The notes beneath the pieces were generated by a model. The model made no database searches. It had not been told where the DNA came from and was given only the letters and a program-made list of their open reading frames with translations. Shown in pieces: positions 8,673-32,962 of a stretch of 38,514 nt of DNA (position 1 is its first letter; each line of letters begins with the position of its first letter). The DNA is from a virus (Duplodnaviria; Heunggongvirae; Uroviricota; Caudoviricetes). Position numbers and translations under genes: made by a program. The DNA is taken from the IMG/VR virus record IMGVR_UViG_2595698887_000001. One strand, written 5' to 3'.

Positions 8673-9358
8673 ATGTTTTTCGCAGGTTTTTTAGATGATC
8701 CTCTGTTGTAGGGTATGCCACTCCACTCCATGTTCTCAATTATATATCCATTAAAGCATGTCTCATCCCCACATTCGTACTGTGTTTTTGTCAGGAATGT
8801 TAGGTAATTTCGATCTTCTGTTACCATGTGTACACTGTACATTTCCCTGAACCTATCACATCGCAAGATAGTTCCGGGAATGCTTACCTTATCCCTTGAA
8901 GGTTTGTAATAATTGGCTCGATCCTGAATAGACAGGTACGCACCAAGACATGCAGCCTTCAGGGAGCAAGAGACCTTCAGATTGTCAAAATCACCCCCGC
9001 TGATATACCACAGCAGGAGGGGTGGAGGACAATCCTCAAACGCAACACCAGCCCATTCACCGAAGGGGAATATTCCCCTTTCGATAAAATTGAGGTGCCT
9101 GCGCTGTGTGTCTGTCTCCACATCAACATAACTTCTTTTCTGCTTCAGGTCTATGCTTCTGTCGTAACTTTCCTCTCCCACCAAAGGTAAAGACCTTTTA
9201 AAGTAGTCATCACCAACAAAATCGGCCCGGTAACTTCCTGAACCAAGAGAAATAACAGAGGCATAAGCCCATTCATCTCCACTGTTGATGCAGAGTTTAA
9301 GCTCATAAAACCCAAACTCATGTTGTTGACGATACAGAATCCAGCGATCTACAGACAC
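8669..9358 (-). CDS. hypothetical protein with DUF3820-like motif
   Basis: FPFGEWAGVAFEDCPPPLLLWY resembles the PFGK.KG...P..YL.W motif. Confidence 0.6.
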   Translation of the reverse strand: MSVDRWILYRQQHEFGFYELKLCINSGDEWAYASVISLGSGSYRADFVGDDYFKRSLPLVGEESYDRSIDLKQKRSYVDVETDTQRRHLNFIERGIFPFGEWAGVAFEDCPPPLLLWYISGGDFDNLKVSCSLKAACLGAYLSIQDRANYYKPSRDKVSIPGTILRCDRFREMYSVHMVTEDRNYLTFLTKTQYECGDETCFNGYIIENMEWSGIPYNRGSSKKPAKNI

Positions 9359-13726: not shown

Positions 13727-14659
13727 ATGTTTGATGTGAAAAAGAAATTTACCGCCAGTGAGATCAAAAGTCTAGAAGAACGTTATCGTAAAAAGGTTGA
13801 GCGCACAAAGAAACGTGGCCTTGAGTTCAGCCTGACGCTTGATGACTGGTTCATGATGGGTGAGAAGCTCTTAGGTATTGGCAAATGTGACTATACCAAC
13901 ATGGACTTTAGTATGCGCTCTGTGCATGGTGAGAAAGACCCTCTTTATCCAACAGTTGAGCGTATCAATGATAAGAAAGGTTATGTCCGTGGTAACGTTT
14001 GTGTTGTCCTGCAACGCGCTAACGAACTGAAAGATTGCTTGGTTGACAAGAAGACGGCAATCACTATAATTGAACCACTTGATCGTGAGATTGTTCAGGC
14101 AATGATGCTGAACATGTCAAAAGAGCATATGGAACAACTGAAACTAAAATATATTCCACAAGAGGAGAAAGAAATGCCAGTAGATACTTCTGTAGTTGTA
14201 GATAAGCCTGTTGTTGCCGAGAGTTTCTCACGCTATCCAGAATCAAAAGATCGTACTGCCTCTTCTGCAATGGAACTCGCTGAACAGCATTTCCACAAGC
14301 AAGAGCCTGTTGCGGAAGAAACAACCGCCCCGGTAGAAGAAAAGCAGAAACTGCCTGATGATGTCGCTGTGGCACTGGCCTATGCCAACTACTGCAAAAC
14401 ATTCTCTGATGCGGGTATGAACGTTTCTGTGACTTATGCACAGTTCAAAGCGAAGTATATTCGCAACACCTGCTCTCTGACCGGAGAGAAGTTGTCTGGA
14501 GAGCCAAAGGCGATCCTGATCATGGATCTGAAAGTCGGTTTTGCTAAAGACAACTTCATTATTGTGTCGAAGAAAATGGAAACGGCGCTTACTCAACTGA
14601 TCATTCAGACAGAAATGAGCCTCCCTAAAATCACTGCGATGCTCAACAAGGTGGTGTAA
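13727..14659 (+). CDS. T4 Srd-like protein (putative anti-sigma factor family)
   Basis: KKRGLEFSLT...CDYT...ERINDKKGYVRGNV resembles the T4 Srd N-terminus as recalled. Confidence 0.65.
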   Translation: MFDVKKKFTASEIKSLEERYRKKVERTKKRGLEFSLTLDDWFMMGEKLLGIGKCDYTNMDFSMRSVHGEKDPLYPTVERINDKKGYVRGNVCVVLQRANELKDCLVDKKTAITIIEPLDREIVQAMMLNMSKEHMEQLKLKYIPQEEKEMPVDTSVVVDKPVVAESFSRYPESKDRTASSAMELAEQHFHKQEPVAEETTAPVEEKQKLPDDVAVALAYANYCKTFSDAGMNVSVTYAQFKAKYIRNTCSLTGEKLSGEPKAILIMDLKVGFAKDNFIIVSKKMETALTQLIIQTEMSLPKITAMLNKVV

Positions 14660-19483: not shown

Positions 19484-19552
19484 AGCATGTAAGGTAGGCG
19501 AACGTACACCATTTTATTAAAACCGCTCAGAAGAGCTTACAGGAGCTTTTAG

Positions 19553-20377
19553 ATGACCACAGTATTTCACACCACGGGTGTTCTTGACCACTCCAGGAAA
19601 CGCTTCGATATTCCGGATATCGAGATAGTCCTGAAAAAGATCTATGAAGACACAGAGCATCAGCTATCTTATCTTGAGTTTTCAAGTGATCCGGATGATG
19701 AGTCTGATTTTGATAAGCAAAAGGGTAAAGTGGAGTCAGAGCTTGAAGAGCTTAAAACATACGCAAAAAGCTCCGAGCTATCTGATTATCAGACTTATGT
19801 TGCTGATCTTGAGCGTCAAGTAGAGGCCTTAACGTGGAGTCTTATCAATGCTGCTCGTCGTGCAGATAATATGGCACACAACATTTTGTCTGTCGATAAC
19901 AAGATGGATAGGGCTGAGATTGCAGATGAATTCAACTACATAGTTGGTGATGCCACTAATGAACTTGGTTGTGATTTTGTATTGCGGAGGTGTCTCCAGG
20001 AGCGGGGATGGAATGAATGGCAACGCGATTACCTTGACAGCATAGTTCCAACAAGCACAATCATAGAGCTTCTTGTCCATGCAAGTACACCAAGCGATAT
20101 GATTATTGGTGTCGATAGCTGGATTGCCGTCGCTGGGGATCGAGTAACTCTTATGAATGGCAAGGATCGCCTACACCTGACGAAGGAATACGGAGAGATA
20201 GCCATTCATGCTGTCATAGATGGTGTTACGTCGTCGCTCAAGACCGGAGATATAAAGCATCTTTTCATGGACATTCTGCACCCAACGGATGAAGAGATCC
20301 AGATGTATGAAATGGCTCACCACAAGAGTTATGATATTTCTATGTGGAGAGATATTTTCGGTACGAAACCAAAATGA
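19553..20377 (+). CDS. hypothetical protein
   Basis: 274 aa; AGGAG RBS; last gene before the non-coding boundary. Confidence 0.65.
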   Translation: MTTVFHTTGVLDHSRKRFDIPDIEIVLKKIYEDTEHQLSYLEFSSDPDDESDFDKQKGKVESELEELKTYAKSSELSDYQTYVADLERQVEALTWSLINAARRADNMAHNILSVDNKMDRAEIADEFNYIVGDATNELGCDFVLRRCLQERGWNEWQRDYLDSIVPTSTIIELLVHASTPSDMIIGVDSWIAVAGDRVTLMNGKDRLHLTKEYGEIAIHAVIDGVTSSLKTGDIKHLFMDILHPTDEEIQMYEMAHHKSYDISMWRDIFGTKPK

Positions 20378-20904: not shown

Positions 20905-20953
20905 CGGAATGAGAAGCATTCTCATTTAGCTTTTTGAATGATAATCATTCTCA
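20905..20953. promoter_or_regulatory. two Fur-box-like sites
   Basis: TGAGAAG-C-ATTCTCA (20910) and TGATAAT-C-ATTCTCA (20939; 13/14 to the 7-1-7 consensus). Confidence 0.65.
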
Positions 20954-21010
20954 TTTGCAGAATGACGGGCACCCCCGGTGTTTTGTACTCCGGTTTCAAT
21001 GTTCCCGCTA
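20939..21010 (-). repeat. promoter-led element copy 1 (homolog of 30308-30379), possible ncRNA
   Basis: about 57/73 identical to copy 2 by manual alignment. Confidence 0.65.
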
Positions 21011-22128: not shown

Positions 22129-22180
22129 TCCCCCGGTTCGGATCGGTTATCTTACTAACAAGCCGGGGACGCTCCCCGGC
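22125..22180 (+). promoter_or_regulatory. early promoter + leader hairpin
   Basis: TTGATC-17-TATCTT; GCCGGGGA-CGC-TCCCCGGC at 22162-22180. Confidence 0.8.
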
Positions 22181-22201
22181 ACTAACGAAAGGTAAAACAG
22201 A

Positions 22202-22498
22202 ATGAAAATTTCCGCTAACAAACAATTGATCGGCACTGTTAAAAATTATGTCAGGAATCCGTATGAGTTCGGCGGGTATCCTAAGATTTTGATCATGCGT
22301 GATGGCGGTTGCCTTTGTTCAAAATGCGCCCGTGAAAATTTCCCGCGCCTGCTGGAAGAGTTAAGGGATGAATGCGATCCGGCCTGGATGCCTGCCGGGG
22401 TAGATGTTTATTGGGAAGGGGCGGATCTGCCGTGTGATCACTGTAACACCCCGATCCCTAGCGCCTATGGCGATCCGGAAGATGACACCGAAGAATAA
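22202..22498 (+). CDS. early Zn-binding hypothetical protein
   Basis: GGYP...CLCSKC...CDHC...SAYGD. Confidence 0.8.
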   Translation: MKISANKQLIGTVKNYVRNPYEFGGYPKILIMRDGGCLCSKCARENFPRLLEELRDECDPAWMPAGVDVYWEGADLPCDHCNTPIPSAYGDPEDDTEE

Positions 22499-23179: not shown

Positions 23180-23236
23180 TTGCAATCCTAAGCTAGATCG
23201 ATTACATTATAAATCAAGGCGGGAATGGTTCCCGCC
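23180..23236 (+). promoter_or_regulatory. early promoter + leader hairpin
   Basis: TTGCAA-17-TACATT; GGCGGGAA-TGG-TTCCCGCC. Confidence 0.75.
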
Positions 23237-23257
23237 ACACTGAAAAGGTAATACAAA

Positions 23258-23551
23258 ATGACTACCACAAATAAAACCACTACCGCCCCAGCAAAATTTT
23301 TCCTCGCTCGTATCTATTGCATGTATGACGGTAAAGAGTTCCCCACCGTGGATCTGATTGTTGATCACTCCCTGGAAGATGCAACCAACGAAGCCGAAAA
23401 CCGTTGCGCCACCGCTCACTATTCCTTTTCCGATATCGACGAAGTGAACGAAAGCGGTTATTGGTCTGATTGTGGCGCTCATGTTGTACGCGTTAAATCT
23501 GTAACAGAAATTAGCGCCGCCACCTATGAAGAGATAAAAAATCTCCTGTAA
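23258..23551 (+). CDS. early hypothetical protein
   Basis: 97 aa; AAAGGTAA RBS. Confidence 0.75.
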   Translation: MTTTNKTTTAPAKFFLARIYCMYDGKEFPTVDLIVDHSLEDATNEAENRCATAHYSFSDIDEVNESGYWSDCGAHVVRVKSVTEISAATYEEIKNLL

Positions 23552-23554
23552 GTA

Positions 23555-23610
23555 TTGACACCCCAGCGAGTAAAGCGGATAATTCTATTCAAGCCGGGAC
23601 GGTTCCCGGC
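23555..23610 (+). promoter_or_regulatory. early promoter + leader hairpin
   Basis: TTGACA-17-GATAAT; GCCGGGA-CGGT-TCCCGGC. Confidence 0.8.
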
Positions 23611-23630
23611 ACTGACCGAAGGTAAAGAAA

Positions 23631-24029
23631 ATGGCAAAGTTTAAAACCTCAATCAATCTGTATGACGCTGTGAACCGCCTGAAAGAAGTTTCACGCGAAA
23701 ATCAAACCGGGGATTTTTTCGTGGTTGTTGACTCCTTTGATTTTGGGCGTGATGTCAACGGTAACACGATCAACAAATACCGCGCCACGCTTCACCGTGG
23801 GGATCTGTTATCCGTGCAAAATGGTTACGCTGGTTTCGGGGTCACCGTCCTGGAATCTCCACGCCGCCGCGAACAATCCCACAATGAAGGGCAAAGCGCC
23901 GCGCTTTACTGGTTGGAAAAAATCGGTTATGATCTGGCTTATGAGTCTATGACTTATGCGCCCCACACCAAAAAGCAAGGCTATCGCCACGTTTACCGGG
24001 TAACGAACAATTATTTAAAGGGGCTTTAA
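23631..24029 (+). CDS. early hypothetical protein
   Basis: 132 aa; GAAGGTAAA RBS. Confidence 0.75.
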   Translation: MAKFKTSINLYDAVNRLKEVSRENQTGDFFVVVDSFDFGRDVNGNTINKYRATLHRGDLLSVQNGYAGFGVTVLESPRRREQSHNEGQSAALYWLEKIGYDLAYESMTYAPHTKKQGYRHVYRVTNNYLKGL

Positions 24030-25862: not shown

Positions 25863-26067
25863 TATGCAAAAAAGTGAATTTAAAGAGATCTCAGGCAAGC
25901 AATGCACTTGCCAGGGTTCGACGTTGAAGGGCTTAGAGAGGCTTACAGGAGCTTTAAAGCGGTATCACGACACCGCGCCACGCTCAAAAGGCCTTAAATT
26001 TAGTCACAACGTGAAACTATTTGCATATGATTGAATGGTTATGCAAAACGGTGAATATTGTAAAGAT
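25863..26067 (+). repeat. intergenic module 1 (ARG-box-like array)
   Basis: TATGCAA-N4-GTGAAT at 25863 and 26040; TTACAGGA at 25943; 18-bp boxes at 26010, 26030, 26050. Confidence 0.75.
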
Positions 26068-26079
26068 TTAATAATTTTC

Positions 26080-26107
26080 TTGCGTCCTGGTGTGAATCTG
26101 TTAATAT
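26080..26107 (+). promoter_or_regulatory. early promoter
   Basis: TTGCGT-16-(TGT)TAATAT. Confidence 0.65.
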
Positions 26108-26158
26108 TTAACACGTAGGGCGACATAGTGAAGCCCACACAAACAAAAGGTAAATATC

Positions 26159-26449
26159 ATGTGTAAAGTAATGAATGCTCTGACTAAAAACGCCCTCGAA
26201 AACAAATACCTGGGCAAAATGGTTTATCATAATTATGGTCAAATCGGGTTCGGTGTGGTCACCGGGATCGATGACCGTGATCCCACAAAATTACGTTTAC
26301 GCGTGAAGTTTACCCGCAACAATACCCCGGCGCATATCCAAAAATATGACAACCGGGCGGATCGGGTTCGTTGCCTCCTCCCTCAATCGATCACCGTGTC
26401 CCGTGTGCGTTATGAGGACTACAACCGCACAAACCAGATCAAAAAATAG
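26159..26449 (+). CDS. early hypothetical protein
   Basis: 96 aa; AAAAGGTAAA RBS. Confidence 0.7.
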   Translation: MCKVMNALTKNALENKYLGKMVYHNYGQIGFGVVTGIDDRDPTKLRLRVKFTRNNTPAHIQKYDNRADRVRCLLPQSITVSRVRYEDYNRTNQIKK

Positions 26450-26450
26450 C

Positions 26451-26478
26451 TTGCAATCTGCGCCGCTTATGGTATCTT
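26451..26478 (+). promoter_or_regulatory. early promoter
   Basis: TTGCAA-16-(TGG)TATCTT; leader GGCAATAATGCC also seen at 24659. Confidence 0.65.
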
Positions 26479-26525
26479 TATTCATAGGCGGCAATAATGC
26501 CACCACTTAAAGAGAGGTAAACAAA

Positions 26526-26627
26526 ATGTTAGATTATACAAACCTTTGGTGTGTGGCTGCTCTGGTATCTTTCATCGTTGCGGCCTGCTCTGTGGTCGCT
26601 ATCCATATCATTTTAGAGGATCGTTAA
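26526..26627 (+). CDS. 33-aa single-TM peptide
   Basis: MLDYTNLWCVAALVSFIVAACSVVAIHIILEDR; GAGGTAAA RBS. Confidence 0.65.
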   Translation: MLDYTNLWCVAALVSFIVAACSVVAIHIILEDR

Positions 26628-26628
26628 T

Positions 26629-26847
26629 ATGTTTGGGTTTATCGTTATGGCCTGCCATATCTCGCTAACTTCAATGAAGCTTGAGTGTGATTGGAATGTT
26701 AAAAAAACATTCCCCACGGAGCAAGCTTGCAACGTGTACGAAAACGAATACACGTTAGGTAAGGGCGAGCAGATCGGGATCTGTGATGAGCTAGACCCCG
26801 GCGTCAAAGAAGGCGATAAACGCCCTATCCTCACCCTCAAAAAGTAA
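26629..26847 (+). CDS. early hypothetical (possibly exported) protein
   Basis: 72 aa; hydrophobic start; Cys residues. Confidence 0.6.
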   Translation: MFGFIVMACHISLTSMKLECDWNVKKTFPTEQACNVYENEYTLGKGEQIGICDELDPGVKEGDKRPILTLKK

Positions 26848-26857
26848 GGTAACGATC

Positions 26858-27154
26858 ATGTTTGAAGTATTCGCGGGAATGTGTTTTTATAGCGCCCTTG
26901 CGCTTAGACAGTGTGATGATTTTATTGTTGAATCATACGACGATCCGCTAACCTGCAATATCGTAGCGCGTGGCTATTCCGAGGATCGCCGCTGGATTAA
27001 TCCGGCTTGCATCCCATCGCCGGAAGTCGAACCAATGCCAGAAGGTGAAGCCGTGGAAGGTGATCCGGCGGTTGCCGTAACATCCTTTTTTGTGGATAAT
27101 TTGAGCGCTCAAAGTCTGGTTGAAATGTACGCCACACAAGAGGCCAAAAAATAA
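26858..27154 (+). CDS. early hypothetical protein
   Basis: 98 aa; AAGGTAA RBS; Cys pattern like the preceding ORF. Confidence 0.65.
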   Translation: MFEVFAGMCFYSALALRQCDDFIVESYDDPLTCNIVARGYSEDRRWINPACIPSPEVEPMPEGEAVEGDPAVAVTSFFVDNLSAQSLVEMYATQEAKK

Positions 27155-27156
27155 AT

Positions 27157-27216
27157 TTGACAACTGGGAACGGTTGATCAATAATTACCAGACAAGGCCG
27201 GGAGCGGTTCCCGGTC
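27157..27216 (+). promoter_or_regulatory. early promoter + leader hairpin
   Basis: TTGACA-17-AATAAT; GGCCGGGA-GCGGT-TCCCGGTC. Confidence 0.7.
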
Positions 27217-27233
27217 ACCTGGTGAGGTGAATC

Positions 27234-27350
27234 ATGAAAGGTTACAAAGTAGAATACACTACAGAAAACCCGGTTTACACTGAGGCGCGGATCATGTGTC
27301 GTCTGGTGTGGTCTTTCGTGATCTTCCTGCTGTTATTATCTTTATTCTAA
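27234..27350 (+). CDS. 38-aa peptide with C-terminal TM
   Basis: MKGYKVEY...LVWSFVIFLLLLSLF; GAGGT RBS. Confidence 0.6.
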   Translation: MKGYKVEYTTENPVYTEARIMCRLVWSFVIFLLLLSLF

Positions 27351-27365
27351 AACGAGGTTTTAAAA

Positions 27366-27707
27366 ATGGAACTGGCAAATAAATTTTTCTTCCTGGCTGG
27401 CGTTACTGACAAAGCAAAATGTGATTTTCGTCGTTTCGATGATAAAACGTTATTGCGCTTTTGTCATATCAATGACTCTGTGAACGCTGATCGCCTGGAT
27501 ATCATGATCCGCACGGAAACCAATATTGATCACACTACACAAAAGCCAGTCAAAGATCATTACATCTCTTATCAGCTTGAAAGCGTGAAAGGCTATGTAA
27601 AACAGGCTGACAGCCTGCCGATCCGTGATGCTCTGGACGTTTTCGCGGTAGTTGTTGAGATTGTTAATGATGTTTTTCCGGTTGACTCTGAAAACCAGAT
27701 CGGCTAA
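27366..27707 (+). CDS. early hypothetical protein
   Basis: 113 aa; GAGGT RBS. Confidence 0.7.
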   Translation: MELANKFFFLAGVTDKAKCDFRRFDDKTLLRFCHINDSVNADRLDIMIRTETNIDHTTQKPVKDHYISYQLESVKGYVKQADSLPIRDALDVFAVVVEIVNDVFPVDSENQIG

Positions 27708-27740
27708 AGTATTCTAACAGGCCGGGGATTGTCCCCGGTC
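27682..27740 (+). promoter_or_regulatory. early promoter + leader hairpin
   Basis: TTGACT-17-TAAAGT; GGCCGGGGA-TTG-TCCCCGGTC. Confidence 0.75.
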
Positions 27741-27760
27741 ACAATAGAAAGGTAAATATT

Positions 27761-27994
27761 ATGGCACGTTACACTAAAACCGTGGATATCTGGGACGCTC
27801 AAACCAACGTTGCAAAATTGCAGCCGGGGCAATGGGTAGAGGCTGGCAAAGGCGGTGATCGCGGGATCTTCTGTGGTGTTAAACGCTCTGGATCTGTGGT
27901 TGTTGCCTGGAAGAATAACGCAAGCAACCATAAGCGCGACGGGTATCGTGGCTATATTTCCGATCTGTTTTCTTATGCTAAAGTTTGGGCTTAA
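27761..27994 (+). CDS. early hypothetical protein
   Basis: 77 aa; GAAAGGTAAA RBS. Confidence 0.75.
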   Translation: MARYTKTVDIWDAQTNVAKLQPGQWVEAGKGGDRGIFCGVKRSGSVVVAWKNNASNHKRDGYRGYISDLFSYAKVWA

Positions 27995-27996
27995 TT

Positions 27997-28329
27997 ATGA
28001 AAAATAAAAATGTTTATTGGTCATCCTCATGCGGTCGCCTTTGTCTGATTTTCCGTGACCGTGACCAGGTAGAAGAGATCGCCCACTCTGGGGACTGTGA
28101 AGCCTCCACCGTTGAAGCCTTGCCCTATTTCCGGGACGGCTTACAGTTTAGCGCCTACACCGATCAAATGATCCGGGATTACCTGGCCGAAACCGGGATC
28201 GAGCGTGAAGGGGTGGACGGGATCGACAACATGGATCGCCACACCCTGGAAATGTACCTGTTATGGATCGCCGCTGGTGATATGCTGGACGTTTTCAACG
28301 TTGGCGATGATTACGGGGAAGATGAATAA
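27997..28329 (+). CDS. early acidic hypothetical protein
   Basis: 110 aa; IAHSGDC...LLWIAAGD. Confidence 0.7.
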   Translation: MKNKNVYWSSSCGRLCLIFRDRDQVEEIAHSGDCEASTVEALPYFRDGLQFSAYTDQMIRDYLAETGIEREGVDGIDNMDRHTLEMYLLWIAAGDMLDVFNVGDDYGEDE

Positions 28330-28335
28330 AACCGC

Positions 28336-28394
28336 TTGCAAGCCAGGCGCGGATCGGTTAATATCTTTTTGAGGCCGGGGAATACCTCCCCGGC
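28336..28394 (+). promoter_or_regulatory. early promoter + leader hairpin
   Basis: TTGCAA-17-TAATAT; GCCGGGGA-ATACC-TCCCCGGC. Confidence 0.75.
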
Positions 28395-28415
28395 AAGCCA
28401 GAAAGGTAAACAAAA

Positions 28416-28805
28416 ATGCAAAATTTCATCACTATCACCAATAACGATAAACTGCAATCTCTGATCGGTATCCTTAACGATGTTTCACCGTTTATCGTTA
28501 AAAATCTTTACTCACATTTGAAAAATGTTAAACCCGCTATTTGGTCTGCTCATTGCTATGACCAGGACGAAAGCGCGGCGGCATACATGATCGAAATGTT
28601 AAAAGATAGTATGCAACTTTGTTTATCTCAAAGCGTTATTAATGAAGTTGATAGCCGTTTATCTCTGGCTATTGAATACCAGATGCAAGCAATGTATAAT
28701 CAGTTAGACATTGAAGAGCAGCAAGATCAAGATTCATTCTGGGATCGTGCTGATGCTCAAAGCGCCTTTGATGACCGTTTAGCAATGTACGCTAACGAAT
28801 ACTAA
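28416..28805 (+). CDS. early acidic hypothetical protein
   Basis: 129 aa; GAAAGGTAAA RBS. Confidence 0.75.
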   Translation: MQNFITITNNDKLQSLIGILNDVSPFIVKNLYSHLKNVKPAIWSAHCYDQDESAAAYMIEMLKDSMQLCLSQSVINEVDSRLSLAIEYQMQAMYNQLDIEEQQDQDSFWDRADAQSAFDDRLAMYANEY

Positions 28806-28815
28806 ACAAAACAAG

Positions 28816-28834
28816 GCCGGGGACGTTCCCCGGC
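28816..28834 (+). promoter_or_regulatory. leader hairpin without a clear promoter
   Basis: GCCGGGGA-CGT-TCCCCGGC followed by the GAAAGGTAAA RBS. Confidence 0.65.
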
Positions 28835-28855
28835 ATAATCTGAAAGGTAAAGCAA

Positions 28856-29080
28856 ATGTTAAAGAATCAAACCGGGCAAACTGAATTTTTACGCAACCTT
28901 ATCGCAGGTGAAAAGGCTATATGGTTCTGTGAAGGTGCAAACGTAGATCCGGAAATGCGGAAAATGACCGCCACGGTGTGCAAGGCGAAACTAGGCTTTA
29001 AAATCCGTCAATCAAAAGCCTTGATCGTTACTCCTGATTCTATCCCTCAAGCAATCATCATTATTGAACGTATATCATGA
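28856..29080 (+). CDS. early hypothetical protein
   Basis: 74 aa. Confidence 0.7.
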   Translation: MLKNQTGQTEFLRNLIAGEKAIWFCEGANVDPEMRKMTATVCKAKLGFKIRQSKALIVTPDSIPQAIIIIERIS

Positions 29081-29304
29081 AAAAAGTAATTTTTGATAAC
29101 AAGAAAAACACGGTAACCGCTCAAAAGGTCGGGGAATACATCGAACTTTCGGATCTGTATAGTGACGCGCCGATCCGCTTGTCACCTGCTGAATATAAAA
29201 ATGCTGATTTGGTTAAACATGTTGTCGCTATGGAGTTCGAATTTTTCGAATATCTAGCCTCTTTTGAGGATGATTTTAATAGTGATGGGCTTTACGGCGC
29301 ATGA
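29077..29304 (+). CDS. early hypothetical protein
   Basis: 75 aa; ATGA coupling. Confidence 0.65.
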   Translation: MKKVIFDNKKNTVTAQKVGEYIELSDLYSDAPIRLSPAEYKNADLVKHVVAMEFEFFEYLASFEDDFNSDGLYGA

Positions 29305-29450
29305 TCATTTACGTCAACGTTTTAAACGGGAATCGCTACCGCTGGCGCGGTTCCCGTGTCCTGGCTCTGATGTCTGGTGAATGGGTTCAAAGTCAGCACT
29401 TACGCCCCGCCGATCTCTCACATTTTCCGTTTATAGGTATCAAAGAATGA
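29301..29450 (+). CDS. early hypothetical protein (below cutoff)
   Basis: MIIYVNVLNG..., 49 aa; ATGA coupling at both ends. Confidence 0.6.
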   Translation: MIIYVNVLNGNRYRWRGSRVLALMSGEWVQSQHLRPADLSHFPFIGIKE

Positions 29451-29923
29451 AATATGAAATCACCCCGGAAGATATCAAAACACGCACCCTTGATAGCGCC
29501 CGTTACACCTTAACAAAGCGTGAAGGCCTGCAACTATTTTCAATCTGTTTTATTCATCCTGATGATCCTGATTTTCAATCTGATCCGGTTGAGTTCTGGG
29601 CTAGTAGCTGGGAAACGGCTTATGATGAGCTGATGAATAATGTAAACACTTTCGAATCTTACGGCCTGTCAAGTTTTAGCCAGACAGATCGCCCCCTGGA
29701 GGATGAGAACGTTAGAGCGTGGATCAACCACTACAACGCCCTTTATAACCTCGTGTTTATTCATGGGGAGAGTAAAGAAGAGATGATCAAGAAAGCGCTA
29801 GACTTTAATGATCATTGTTCGTATGTACTCCGCAAAATGTGCGAGCTAGTGGACGCCCTGAGAAGTGCGGAGAGGTTCGACGGCGGATCGGTCTATCGTG
29901 AATCAATGCACCGTTACAGATAA
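29447..29923 (+). CDS. early hypothetical protein
   Basis: 158 aa from MKYEIT. Confidence 0.7.
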   Translation: MKYEITPEDIKTRTLDSARYTLTKREGLQLFSICFIHPDDPDFQSDPVEFWASSWETAYDELMNNVNTFESYGLSSFSQTDRPLEDENVRAWINHYNALYNLVFIHGESKEEMIKKALDFNDHCSYVLRKMCELVDALRSAERFDGGSVYRESMHRYR

Positions 29924-29933
29924 GGGTAAAACA

Positions 29934-30251
29934 ATGACACTTCAAAAAATGATCGCGGTTCGCTGGGCTACCTTAAACCGACTTTGCCCGGAGGATAATC
30001 TGGGATATCGGACACGCCCGGAGCAATTCCGGCGCGGCCTGGCTGCACTTGAAAAGGCGATAGAAAAACACGCTATTGCAACCATTAAAGATCGTGAAGG
30101 TGAATTGTGTTTTGTGGTGGCAATAGATGAGGGGCTTTATCTGGATGATCGAGAATGGTTATCAGTTACATATATCAAACCGTCCCACGGCTTAACACCC
30201 CATGATCATTATTCTGGCTACTGGCTGCCCGCTGGGATAACTATCCGCTAA
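29934..30251 (+). CDS. early hypothetical protein
   Basis: 105 aa from MTLQK; AAGGGTAAAA RBS. Confidence 0.7.
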   Translation: MTLQKMIAVRWATLNRLCPEDNLGYRTRPEQFRRGLAALEKAIEKHAIATIKDREGELCFVVAIDEGLYLDDREWLSVTYIKPSHGLTPHDHYSGYWLPAGITIR

Positions 30252-30271
30252 AATCTTTACAATTCCGGGGC

Positions 30272-30300
30272 TTGTTTTCTGTCCCGGTTTTTGTTATTCT
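30272..30300 (+). promoter_or_regulatory. sigma70 promoter facing non-coding DNA
   Basis: TTGTTT-17-(TGT)TATTCT; overlaps a CCGGG hairpin with a T run. Confidence 0.5.
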
Positions 30301-30307
30301 TTTATGG

Positions 30308-30379
30308 AAGCGGCAACGATGGACACCGGAGGAAACACACCGGAGGTGCCCGTTATTCCGGTAATGAGAATTACTATCA
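30308..30379 (+). repeat. promoter-led element copy 2 ending in a Fur-like box
   Basis: homologous to 20939-21010; TGAGAAT-T-ACTATCA at 30365-30379 (12/14). Confidence 0.65.
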
Positions 30380-30395
30380 ACAACCCTCAAAATCC

Positions 30396-30600
30396 TATGC
30401 AAAATAGTGAATATGGCGAGATCTCCGCTAAAATGGGCTAGGGTACAACCTGGACGCAAAACCGCTTAAAACGCGTTACAGGACGTTTAAAGGCCATATA
30501 AAAATAGCTTGACACGTAAAAACGGCTAAAAAGTAATTTCAACATGAAATCAATTGCATAGCGTTGCATAATCATTCAAAAAGTGAATAAACAGGCTTTT
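30396..30600 (+). repeat. intergenic module 2 (ARG-box-like array)
   Basis: TATGCAA-N4-GTGAAT at 30396; TTACAGGA at 30476; GT-TGCAT-AATC-ATTCA-AA at 30563-30580. Confidence 0.75.
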
Positions 30601-30622
30601 TGTAAAGAAGTGTAAAGAGCCA

Positions 30623-30651
30623 TTGACGTGATGATCCCCCTATAGTAATAT
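30623..30651 (+). promoter_or_regulatory. early promoter
   Basis: TTGACG-17-TAATAT. Confidence 0.75.
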
Positions 30652-30706
30652 TTATCTCGTAGGGCAAACAAACGAAATCAAACAAACAGACTAAGAGGTA
30701 AATCAA

Positions 30707-31072
30707 ATGTTAAACGCTAAAACTGTTGCGCATGTTGGCTGGGATTCAAACGCTTATGAGGGTGAATGGTGCGAAGATTACCGCCGCACTGAATGGGCTT
30801 ACAAAATCCAGATCGAACTGGTAGACGGTTCACGCTTTTATCTTGATCAATCCTTACTGACTTCTGAAACTCATGATTTTGAAGAAATTAAAGCTATTCA
30901 GGATCGCCGTGTAGCTCGCATTGAAAAACATCTGGCTGGTGGTGGCTATCTTAAAGAGGCTCATTGGTATCCTACCGATCCGGCTTATGGCTCTGAAGCT
31001 TATCAGCGCCTGGATGATATGGGAGAGTTTAAAGCCCGTGAAGAAAAAGAGTTTCAACTTAACGGACGTTAA
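30707..31072 (+). CDS. early hypothetical protein
   Basis: 121 aa; HWYPTDPAYGSEAY; GAGGTAAA RBS. Confidence 0.75.
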   Translation: MLNAKTVAHVGWDSNAYEGEWCEDYRRTEWAYKIQIELVDGSRFYLDQSLLTSETHDFEEIKAIQDRRVARIEKHLAGGGYLKEAHWYPTDPAYGSEAYQRLDDMGEFKAREEKEFQLNGR

Positions 31073-31087
31073 CATATTAAAAGGCGC

Positions 31088-31116
31088 TTGCAATGGTGAG
31101 CGCTTTTTGATAAATT
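31088..31116 (+). promoter_or_regulatory. early promoter
   Basis: TTGCAA-17-TAAATT. Confidence 0.65.
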
Positions 31117-31149
31117 AATGTTTCACCAAACAAAACGAGGTAAACGGCA

Positions 31150-31473
31150 ATGACTAAAACAGAATTTTTCGAAATCATCACCGATCATCTGAAACGCCTT
31201 AACGGTCAATTTAACGCTTTCGGTGAATATGTGGCCTTTGACGTTCCAAAATACACCGCCGCCGATCTTGCCCCTTATGAGTTCCACGAAGATCCGGAAA
31301 ATTACGCTAAATGGAAAGCGGAAAACCCGGATTATCCTTGGGTGGCTCATGCGTCAGGTTATACTATGAAAAATTGCTGGTTAGTCGGCCTTATCAATCA
31401 TCGCTCATATGAAGCCGCCACCAAACAAGCGAAGATTTTCGCACGTTGGATCACTGAATACCAAACCAAATAA
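31150..31473 (+). CDS. early hypothetical protein
   Basis: 107 aa; GAGGTAAA RBS. Confidence 0.75.
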   Translation: MTKTEFFEIITDHLKRLNGQFNAFGEYVAFDVPKYTAADLAPYEFHEDPENYAKWKAENPDYPWVAHASGYTMKNCWLVGLINHRSYEAATKQAKIFARWITEYQTK

Positions 31474-31522
31474 ACCCACCTGGGGCGCTAGTCGCCCCGC
31501 TATCATGTGAGAAATAAATAAA

Positions 31523-31789
31523 ATGTATCCAGACAATTACGAAATTATTCACAACGTAAGCCACAACGGAAATTTTGTATCATTGGCACGCCGGGAGACT
31601 TTCGATCCTTTCGATGGTTCGATGAGTTCCCGCACTTATGAAGTAAACTGGCAGATCGACGGGGAAACCAACTACAACCACGATTTAAAATATGTAGCGC
31701 CTGCCCTGGCAATTTTCAAACGTAAAGTAGAAACGATGTTAAAGCCGATCAACCTTTACAACCTGATCCACGATAAACAAGCCAGTTAA
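31523..31789 (+). CDS. early hypothetical protein
   Basis: 88 aa; last ORF of the island. Confidence 0.65.
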   Translation: MYPDNYEIIHNVSHNGNFVSLARRETFDPFDGSMSSRTYEVNWQIDGETNYNHDLKYVAPALAIFKRKVETMLKPINLYNLIHDKQAS

Positions 31790-31811
31790 CACCCATTCAG
31801 GATCACAAGAT

Positions 31812-31836
31812 AAGGCCGGGATTATTCCCGGCTTTT
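31812..31836 (+). terminator. intrinsic terminator
   Basis: GCCGGGA-TTAT-TCCCGGC followed by TTTT. Confidence 0.7.
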
Positions 31837-31886
31837 GCATATCATAACCCACACCAAACCACAACCCCGAATTTTTTACCGTCATT

Positions 31887-32091
31887 TATGCAATAAAGTG
31901 AATTTAAAGAGATCTCTTTAAAGACATATAACGGCAAGCCTAACAGATAAACCCTCTCAAAACTCGTTATATTGCGTTTAATCGTGTATCATTACCCGCC
32001 TTTGACTCACTCACACCCCAAAAATGATAACGCAGGTTATCAAGTGAATAAACACCGTGTTTTTATGCAAATTGAGTGAATACGAAGCAAA
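31887..32091 (+). repeat. intergenic module 3 (ARG-box-like)
   Basis: TATGCAA-N4-GTGAAT at 31887; TATGCAA-N5-GTGAAT at 32064; 20-bp palindrome at 31903-31922. Confidence 0.7.
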
Positions 32092-32218
32092 AACCCTGAA
32101 ATGATAGCTTTTCTCATCTAACCTATTGTGTGGACTGTCTTTTTTTGAGCATAGAAATCATCTTTTGTCAAATAAAATATCGTTCGCGTTATCGGGGTGA
32201 GTGGCGCGAGCGGAGCGA

Positions 32219-32429
32219 GCGACACAATAACACGGGGTAACTCAAACGATAATAAATATCGTTTTCGTTCGCGTTATCGTGGCTCGTTAGCGCCTAAGCG
32301 TTAACAGACAGGATGACTAGAATGATGAATAATTAACAATGCAACTATTACATAGTTGAAGTATTTTATAACCTCGCCACGATAACACCGATTAGCTGAT
32401 CGCTAATCGCCCCCGTGTTATTGTGTCGC
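32219..32429. other. multibranch stem-loop element (ncRNA or ssDNA structure candidate)
   Basis: 19-bp perfect outer inverted repeat; 11-bp inner stem; four further hairpins. Confidence 0.7.
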
Positions 32430-32611: not shown

Positions 32612-32790
32612 TGATAACTATTCGCATATGAGAACGGATGCTCAAAAGCATGTAATTGCTAAACACAATTCTTCCTCCCTGTCAAGCTTTTTGTGGCAGA
32701 TTTACAAAATATTTTCCATTTGAGAATGATTTTCATTTCGAAACTGAAATCGAAATCGTATTCAGAATGATTATCATTTGCATTCTCATC
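32612..32790. promoter_or_regulatory. three Fur-box-like sites
   Basis: TGATAAC-T-ATTCGCA (32612), TGAGAAT-G-ATTTTCA (32721), TCAGAAT-G-ATTATCA (32762) followed by TTTGCATTCTCA. Confidence 0.6.
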
Positions 32791-32934: not shown

Positions 32935-32962
32935 GGTGCGCATAACGTGTATTATGTTAAAT
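32935..32962 (+). other. dif: dif-like XerC/XerD recombination site
   Basis: GGTGCGCATAA-CGTGTA-TTATGTTAAAT; both 11-bp arms identical to E. coli dif; central hexamer differs from TGTATA at 2 positions. Confidence 0.92.

Follow-up and report, generated by a model that had tools for sequence, protein, structure and literature searches.

The use of host architectural proteins is, to our knowledge, well studied for plasmids (cer, psi) and temperate elements, and we know of no description of it for large virulent phages. Among the systems described so far, cer-type sites carry phased A/T tracts (PMC2831885), and one PepA wrap takes at least ~144 bp, with carP1 foreshortened by ~235 bp (PMC2655662). 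Here we analyze a 38,514-nucleotide stretch of viral DNA (IMG/VR virus record IMGVR_UViG_2595698887_000001; the window hereafter, meaning the stretch at its full length) and characterize three ~205-bp non-coding modules on its + strand, M1 (25863–26068), M2 (30396–30600) and M3 (31887–32092), which share a fixed 177-bp layout and ends resembling ArgR sites. We propose that each module acts at the DNA level as the scaffold of a phased nucleoprotein complex, mainly of host proteins, its ends being of ArgR type and its interior bent or wrapped; this is a tentative reading of sequence comparisons, to which we assign a probability of roughly 0.4. The modules tie together features that have otherwise lacked an explanation, namely ARG-type boxes in a phage, a 34-bp motif common to IncX plasmids and T5-like phages, and a conserved dif-type core in a lytic genome, and they offer a directly testable handle on early-transcription organization in large virulent phages.

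Layout and conservation of the modules

Each module opens with a 30-nt head (25863–25892, 30396–30425 and 31887–31916), recognized both by reading of the sequence and as repeat-finder family D9, which is 83–97% identical among the copies and reads tTATGCAAAAnAGTGAATnTnnnGAGATCTC in the ungapped alignment. The head contains ATGCA-N6-TGAAT, the junction of two ARG-type boxes, plus the palindrome GAGATCTC; in M3, which follows the last + strand gene, it lies within a 20-bp palindrome. After ~35 variable bases comes a central 34-bp block of three GCGTTA-type direct repeats with an 11-bp period (columns 64–100; 25928–25964 in M1, 30461–30497 in M2 and 31952–31988 in M3), and beyond it ~60 bp of A-rich, A/T-phased DNA with a short palindrome whose sequence varies by module type. 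The distal part carries TTGCATA at column 156, ATGCA at 177 and TGAAT at 187–189, and forms an array of two or three ARG-type boxes at a 20–21-bp period: boxes U, V and W at 26010–26027, 26030–26047 and 26050–26067 in M1 and at 30543–30560, 30563–30580 and 30582–30599 in M2, and box V at 32054–32071 with ATGCA-N7-TGAAT at 32065–32081 in M3, all on the + strand.

The original prediction for this DNA, made from the letters of the window, had described three diverged modules in which a first ATGCA lies 177 bp from a distal AT(G/T)CA, and this distance is exact in all three (25864 to 26041, 30397 to 30574 and 31888 to 32065). The two 18-bp boxes that it singled out are present (ATTGAATGGTTATGCAAA at 26030 and GTTGCATAATCATTCAAA at 30563), as are their weaker neighbors, ~20 bp to either side (26010 and 26050; 30543 and 30582). 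The central TTA(CAGGA) lies at +79 as described, in the form of TTACAGGA in M1 and M2 and as TTA alone in M3 (TTATATTG). One detail is corrected: the TGMAT-N4-ATKCA palindrome belongs to some module types only, the universally conserved unit being the ATGCA-N6-TGAAT box junction.

By megablast, the closest relatives of the window are the Seunavirus group of large virulent myoviruses (Vequintavirinae), with Enterobacter phage EC152 and Escherichia phage LNA4 at 96% identity and 4MG at 93%. A head-pattern scan of IMG/VR, combined with annotated relatives, yielded 23 distinct copies of the module from Seunavirus, Mydovirus, Henunavirus and uncultured relatives, one of the copy-bearing IMG/VR contigs having a mere trace of nucleotide similarity to known phages. 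The spacing, whose conservation in related phages had been named as the check on the claim, is indeed conserved: between head and distal ATGCA there are 177 bp in 22 of the 23 copies and 176 bp in the remaining one. The interiors of the seven module types share 37–58% pairwise identity and yet stay in register without indels, the ungapped mean identity being 0.44 in register versus 0.23–0.33 at shifts of 1–3 bp, with each quarter of the module peaking at shift 0 in the sliding comparison. Their divergence has therefore come about by substitution, indels being nearly absent, and we propose as the reason that phasing would be lost with any indel of 1–9 bp. Selection on geometry is rarely seen as cleanly as in a non-coding module whose exact length is preserved in several phage genera.

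ATGCA-N5-7-TGAAT occurs five times in the window versus 0.47 expected, always on the + strand and always inside a module; genome-wide counts on the complete records of EC152 and 4MG (148 kb each) return six module ends plus at most one stray match, and the pattern also marks module ends in PVP-SE1 and in Klebsiella Mydovirus BIS47. The sole indel seen adjoining a module is a 10-bp insertion between the distal box and the −35 element, by which M2 orthologs differ exactly; the box-to-promoter distances of M1 and M2 differ by 10 bp too, that of M2 being the longer. The inserted segment (ACAGGCTTTT or ACAGGCCTTT; window 30590–30599 compared with the region at 9120 of locus L001 in our numbering of relatives, and L004 compared with L006) is present or absent within both Seunavirus and Mydovirus pairs, a pattern suggestive of exchange, or of one helical turn having been gained more than once. 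The distance from module to next start codon is variable, at 118, 126 and 135 bp in three M1 orthologs. The modules are thus real and, as far as our searches show, undescribed: we found no description of them in the literature searched, in which papers on the phage subfamily mention sigma-70-like early promoters only.

All of the modules lie between gene cassettes, directly after terminators, a position that would also suit mobile regulatory cassettes or recombination junctions, the heads and blocks acting as homology patches for cassette swaps between phages. M2 is missing from PVP-SE1 together with its flanking genes, and paralogous heads are 83–97% identical while interiors stand at ~45%. 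Homology patches, however, need no fixed 177-bp length, helical phasing or in-register interiors, and a search for a promoter inside the module found no conserved sigma-70 promoter at a fixed column on either strand. The closest analogue known to us, the PeSL of T4-type phages, is defined by an early promoter plus a stem-loop; like the modules it is a repeated non-coding element at cassette boundaries of a plastic early region, whereas the modules have no conserved promoter or stable stem-loop at a fixed place. We regard such a cassette function as unlikely, and it is not exclusive of a scaffold for host factors.

ARG-type ends, helical phasing and the proposed complex

To score the boxes we built a matrix from 14 E. 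coli ARG boxes of seven K-12 operators (argECBH, argI, argF, argR, argA, argD and carAB). Across the whole window, this matrix ranks box V of M2 (30563, 15.1 bits) first and box V of M1 (26030, 12.4 bits) second, and the tandem ranking agrees, with the U+V pairs at 30543 and 26010 (a 2-bp gap in each) in first and second place; the arginine-regulon trait of two 18-bp boxes set 2–3 bp apart is accordingly seen in the M1 and M2 tandems, though not in all relatives. In EC152 the top three boxes occupy the same module column in M2, M3 and M1, and the top box is a module box also in 4MG and in loci L005 and L013. The ARG-type box at module column 166 is top-ranked in the window and in EC152 and weak in several relatives, and there is no core to which its position could be referenced. 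When the carAB P2 operator is matched to the window instead, the best sites fall in M3, at its distal box and its head, and at the head of M1. Furthermore, both ATGCA and TGCAT occur naturally as half-site variants, in the argR, argA, argD, argE and carA operators as well as in nine cer-type sites, and the spacer between ATGCA and TGAAT at the distal end varies from 5 to 7 bp and therefore fits adjacent boxes better than one rigid palindrome.

Helical phasing was assessed in a blind scan of the window for 10–10.5-bp AA/TT periodicity over segments of 161 bp, and for comparison we took ColE1 cer from its plasmid record and added eight further cer-like sites (nine in all). All 15 top-scoring segments fall in M2 or M3, which stand at the 99.3rd and 99.4th percentiles of the window, with M1 at the 86th. 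M2-type copies score 1.26–1.67 (1.37 for M2 itself) and M3-type copies 1.56–1.81 (1.66 for M3), compared with 0.95–1.5 in the nine cer-like accessory regions and 1.6–1.8 in carAB, so that cer-type phasing is present in M2 and M3; M2-type and M3-type copies, cer-like sites and carAB all peak at a period of 10–10.25 bp. The module interior measures 161 bp and is therefore within the length range of a single PepA wrap (PMC2655662).

In the complex that we envisage, arginine-bound ArgR hexamers would dock at both module ends, 177 bp or ~17 helical turns apart, another host factor would dock on the central block, and the ~160 bp between the ends would be bent or wrapped in the way that PepA wraps the carAB P1 operator and the accessory DNA of cer. 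Such a knob would stand at the cassette boundaries of the early-gene arm; at M1 and M2, where a sigma-70 promoter follows closely and in helical phase, it could tune that promoter or block read-through, and the three direct-repeat knobs might also pair with one another in the manner of cer sites. Should ArgR bind, the arginine status of the host could feed into early phage expression.

Several results weigh against this proposal, at the ends, in the interior and in the comparison with cer. The 12–15-bit ARG scores are within the chance range for 38.5 kb (null maximum 13.1 ± 1.8), the two top matches are paralogs and hence not independent, and matches to the ARG consensus are not enriched (56 at ≥12/16 positions versus 51 expected), a count that is uninformative. 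The head and most distal sites are mere half boxes of 4–5 bits, the PVP-SE1 and Klebsiella copies of M1, like Hena1, have lost the left half of box V, and the box array stands upstream of the promoter without overlapping it, unlike in arg operators. In the interior, the AA/TT score of M1 (0.5–0.57) equals background, and phasing is absent from the M1 types and from six copies of Erwinia phage Hena1 and uncultured relatives. By Smith-Waterman alignment, M2-type modules alone match reverse-complemented cer over ~130 bp (z 4.8–6.1), but M2 is barely the best cer-like region of the window, and an nhmmer search with a profile of the nine cer-like sites gave E > 1, although most of its weak matches lie in modules. 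Finally, the full module is limited to Vequintavirinae-like phages, and its restriction to this single lineage is compatible as well with a binder encoded by the phage. The earlier identification of the ends as ARG boxes thus retains the resemblance to ArgR operators, seen in the matrix ranks, the carAB matches and the cer-like box form, while the scores alone are within the chance range and the boxes are weak in several relatives.

The same frame could instead hold a phage-encoded binder or a host protein other than ArgR, for instance an early-to-middle regulator, which would bind boxes and block in the same phased complex and make the ARG likeness coincidental. We consider this doubtful but possible, and nearly as likely as a host-factor scaffold. 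The 30-nt head, including its spacer AAAAnAG and GAGATCTC, is conserved far beyond what an ArgR site needs, many copies have no complete ARG box, and both the lineage restriction and the chance-range matrix scores noted above point the same way. No candidate protein was found, however: a protein-family search of the genes neighboring the modules returned no DNA-binding family. The central block, moreover, is common to plasmids and unrelated phages, which argues for a host factor, and a phage binder leaves unexplained why independent ArgR-derived probes select the module boxes first.

Returning to the host-factor scaffold, its possible link to transcription differs among modules. M1 is followed by a putative sigma-70 promoter at 26080–26108 (TTGCGT-17-TAATAT with TG; + strand) and a gene at 26159, and M2 by one at 30623–30651 (TTGACG-17-TAATAT; + strand) and a gene at 30707, the M1 promoter being supported by ortholog conservation as well as by its sequence. 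Both promoters lead into CGTAGGGC (26109–26122 and 30652–30665), which lies a few bases past the −10 element, is conserved in orthologs and may be a transcript start or a further site. M3 has no conserved downstream promoter, and the six copies from Hena1 and uncultured relatives lead directly into a ribosome site and start codon. The gating that had been suggested for the promoters at 26080 and 30623 is consequently not supported as a general role of the modules.

Those six copies, which end at a ribosome site and so are transcribed there, bear on another explanation, namely that the module is a structured RNA (a leader or small RNA) in which the head UAUGCAA pairs with UUGCAUA at +156. All copies are co-oriented with flanking genes at the loci examined, M1 gives a fold z of −2.1, and PVP-SE1 carries one compensatory change from A-U to G-C. 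The modules nonetheless have neither a covarying conserved fold nor an Rfam match (no model reaches its gathering score in the window, and the IncX locus gives nothing even up to E = 1): the module family yields no consensus fold, a candidate hairpin at columns 132–158 is weak, and eight M1 orthologs give no covariation support, with an unfavorable covariation term and many pairs broken. The closing helix is missing from M3 and other copies, palindromic half-sites and AA/TT helical phasing are properties of DNA, and the central block is antisense to genes in Certrevirus PBES 02. We judge an RNA function the least probable of the explanations considered here. A tRNA search found none, and a coding reading, in which the head ATG would open a frame of 59 codons across the 177 bp, was rejected on account of the missing ribosome site and early stops in M2, M3 and the M1 of PVP-SE1.

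A central block shared with plasmids and other phages

The central block is not confined to the modules. The window holds a lone copy on the + strand at 19514–19553 (repeat-finder family D6), essentially where the original prediction had noticed one (19520–19550), whose AGGAG is the ribosome site of the gene at 19553–20377. Outside the window, the block is matched in 841 plasmids, mostly of IncX type, where it lies in a stretch without annotation that separates the origin from stbDE, and a matrix derived from the phage blocks gives the IncX copies 43–45 bits. With the IncX block as query, 431 phage records are retrieved, including T5-like terminal repeats and Certrevirus. Examples of such copies are found at 1310–1355, 1430–1470 and 1498–1540 of locus L020, at 706–740 of L037 and at 500–540 of L038, and their settings are beside IncX origins with iterons and DnaA boxes near, again close to DnaA boxes within a T5-like left terminal repeat, and in Certrevirus. 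The IncX and T5-like copies share the three GCGTTA-type repeats at an 11-bp period, but there the block stands alone or paired, without ARG-type ends or a 177-bp frame, whereas in the phages studied here it forms the middle of a fixed-length module. We found no description of a ~34-bp motif of IncX origins and T5-like terminal repeats in the literature searched.

Judged by this distribution, the central block is a separate widespread motif that appears to act as DNA: its presence in plasmids and its antisense position relative to PBES 02 genes argue for this and make a host factor its likely reader. Response regulators of the OmpR/PhoB family, ArcA among them, use triple direct repeats of this 11-bp period, and the repeats of the block may match that use. 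A likeness of the block to the DNA beside the cer core, which had also been suggested, is visible (GCGCTGAACGCGTTTTAGC followed by GGTGCG) and statistically weak, an ungapped block matrix scoring at most 5 bits on the cer-like sites.

The company that the block keeps elsewhere raises the question of replication. The modules might be parts of origins or priming sites, given that the block lies near iterons and DnaA boxes in IncX plasmids and within the left terminal repeat of T5-like phages, and that M3 adjoins a 1.6-kb non-coding tract with long inverted repeats. Neither DnaA boxes nor iteron arrays are found at M1–M3, however, and three copies in the early-gene arm, two of them directly feeding promoters, are unlike known origins. 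We therefore hold an origin function of the modules themselves to be improbable, and continue to favor a scaffold bound by host factors. The tract past M3 is, in its own right, a candidate origin region. Genes in the window run leftward from 1 to 13.7 kb and rightward from 13.7 to 31.8 kb, the latter being small early-type hypotheticals; the tract follows the rightward genes, after which leftward genes resume. It contains a perfect 19-bp inverted repeat (32219–32237 and 32411–32429, 173 bp apart) with TCGTTCGCGTTATCG-type repeats nearby.

Other repeated features were recorded alongside the modules. A Fur-box-like palindrome, TGAGAAT-N-ATTCTCA(ACAA), recurs at 20905–20963, 30367–30387 and 32720–32790, and in relatives it often flanks modules, lying just before or after them in L002, L004 and L009. 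A family of GC-rich hairpins (GCCGGGGA-N-TCCCCGGC; repeat-finder families D1 and D2) is found at 22159–22205, 23215–23261, 23589–23635, 27718–27764 and 28813–28859, just 5′ of ribosome sites between early genes and without a + strand T run. At the start of the rightward genes, a 310-residue protein (13727–14659) matches a PHROG annotated as HNH endonuclease and, more weakly, families annotated as "decoy of host sigma70" and "Srd anti-sigma factor".

The dif-type core and comparison with cer and carAB

A dif-like XerC/XerD core, GGTGCGCATAA-CGTGTA-TTATGTTAAAT, is present on the + strand at 32935–32962, and both of its arms are identical to those of the E. coli dif consensus, which we take to be GGTGCGCATAA and TTATGTTAAAT. 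It is the only full core in the window; M1 and M2 have none, and M3 lies 844 bp away in the opposite orientation, facing away from it, in agreement with the earlier statement that the modules are not adjacent to the dif core and do not form a canonical cer. The core is kept in every relative whose locus reaches it, across Seunavirus, Mydovirus and Erwinia phage Hena1 (L001:11889, L002:14572, L003:11500, L004:13698 and L018:6637), and always lies downstream of the last module; a dif-type core in strictly lytic phages is odd. On its XerC side we found no ARG box, no phasing and no cer-type accessory features. A weak Xer-like core at 32146–32173 (TGAGCATAGAA-ATCATC-TTTTGTCAAAT), 83 bp after box V of M3 and in a cer-like orientation, was rejected as being at the estimated chance level and poorly conserved in EC152.

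A stronger version of the scaffold reading would take the modules as orphan cer-like scaffolds in a lytic phage lineage that recruit ArgR, PepA and a third factor and, by direct-repeat interwrapping, set up topological domains or arginine-dependent early expression, perhaps together with the dif-type core, for example in a plasmid-like carrier state. This more specific scenario seems to us unlikely. Homology to cer over the whole site was set aside: the nhmmer search is not significant, and an apparent match in L013 lies in a coding region and has no XerD arm.

Compared with the known systems, the modules resemble accessory DNA in several respects and are not members of the cer family. The differences from cer are that no XerC/XerD core adjoins any module and that the phage ARG-type boxes stand at both module ends rather than in the middle. 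In common with cer accessory DNA, the modules comprise ~180–200 bp of non-coding DNA and occur as several direct-repeat copies per molecule, they carry AA/TT phasing at ~10.25 bp of the same strength, and their GCGTT-rich block keeps the cer orientation relative to the ARG box, at ~97–102 bp from it. The box form TGCAT-N4-ATKCA is shared as well: the ARG box of ColE1 cer is TTGCATAGGTATTCATA, that is, TGCAT-N4-ATTCA, and the eight further cer-like sites have TGCAT-N4-ATGCA with ATKCA-N6 in front.

The carAB control region offers a second point of reference. Its ARG boxes overlap P2, whereas the phage array stops 12–23 bp upstream of the −35 element and no module overlaps an arginine-related promoter, the genes downstream being phage hypotheticals; no IHF, PurR or RutR sites were identified, and the modules serve phage early genes instead of arginine or pyrimidine genes. 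What carAB and the modules share is phased DNA upstream of a promoter, with AA/TT periodicity of equal strength, and a head box, TATGCAA(A/T)AAAGTGAAT, that nearly equals the junction of carAB boxes 1 and 2, TATGCAAATAAAGTGAGT.

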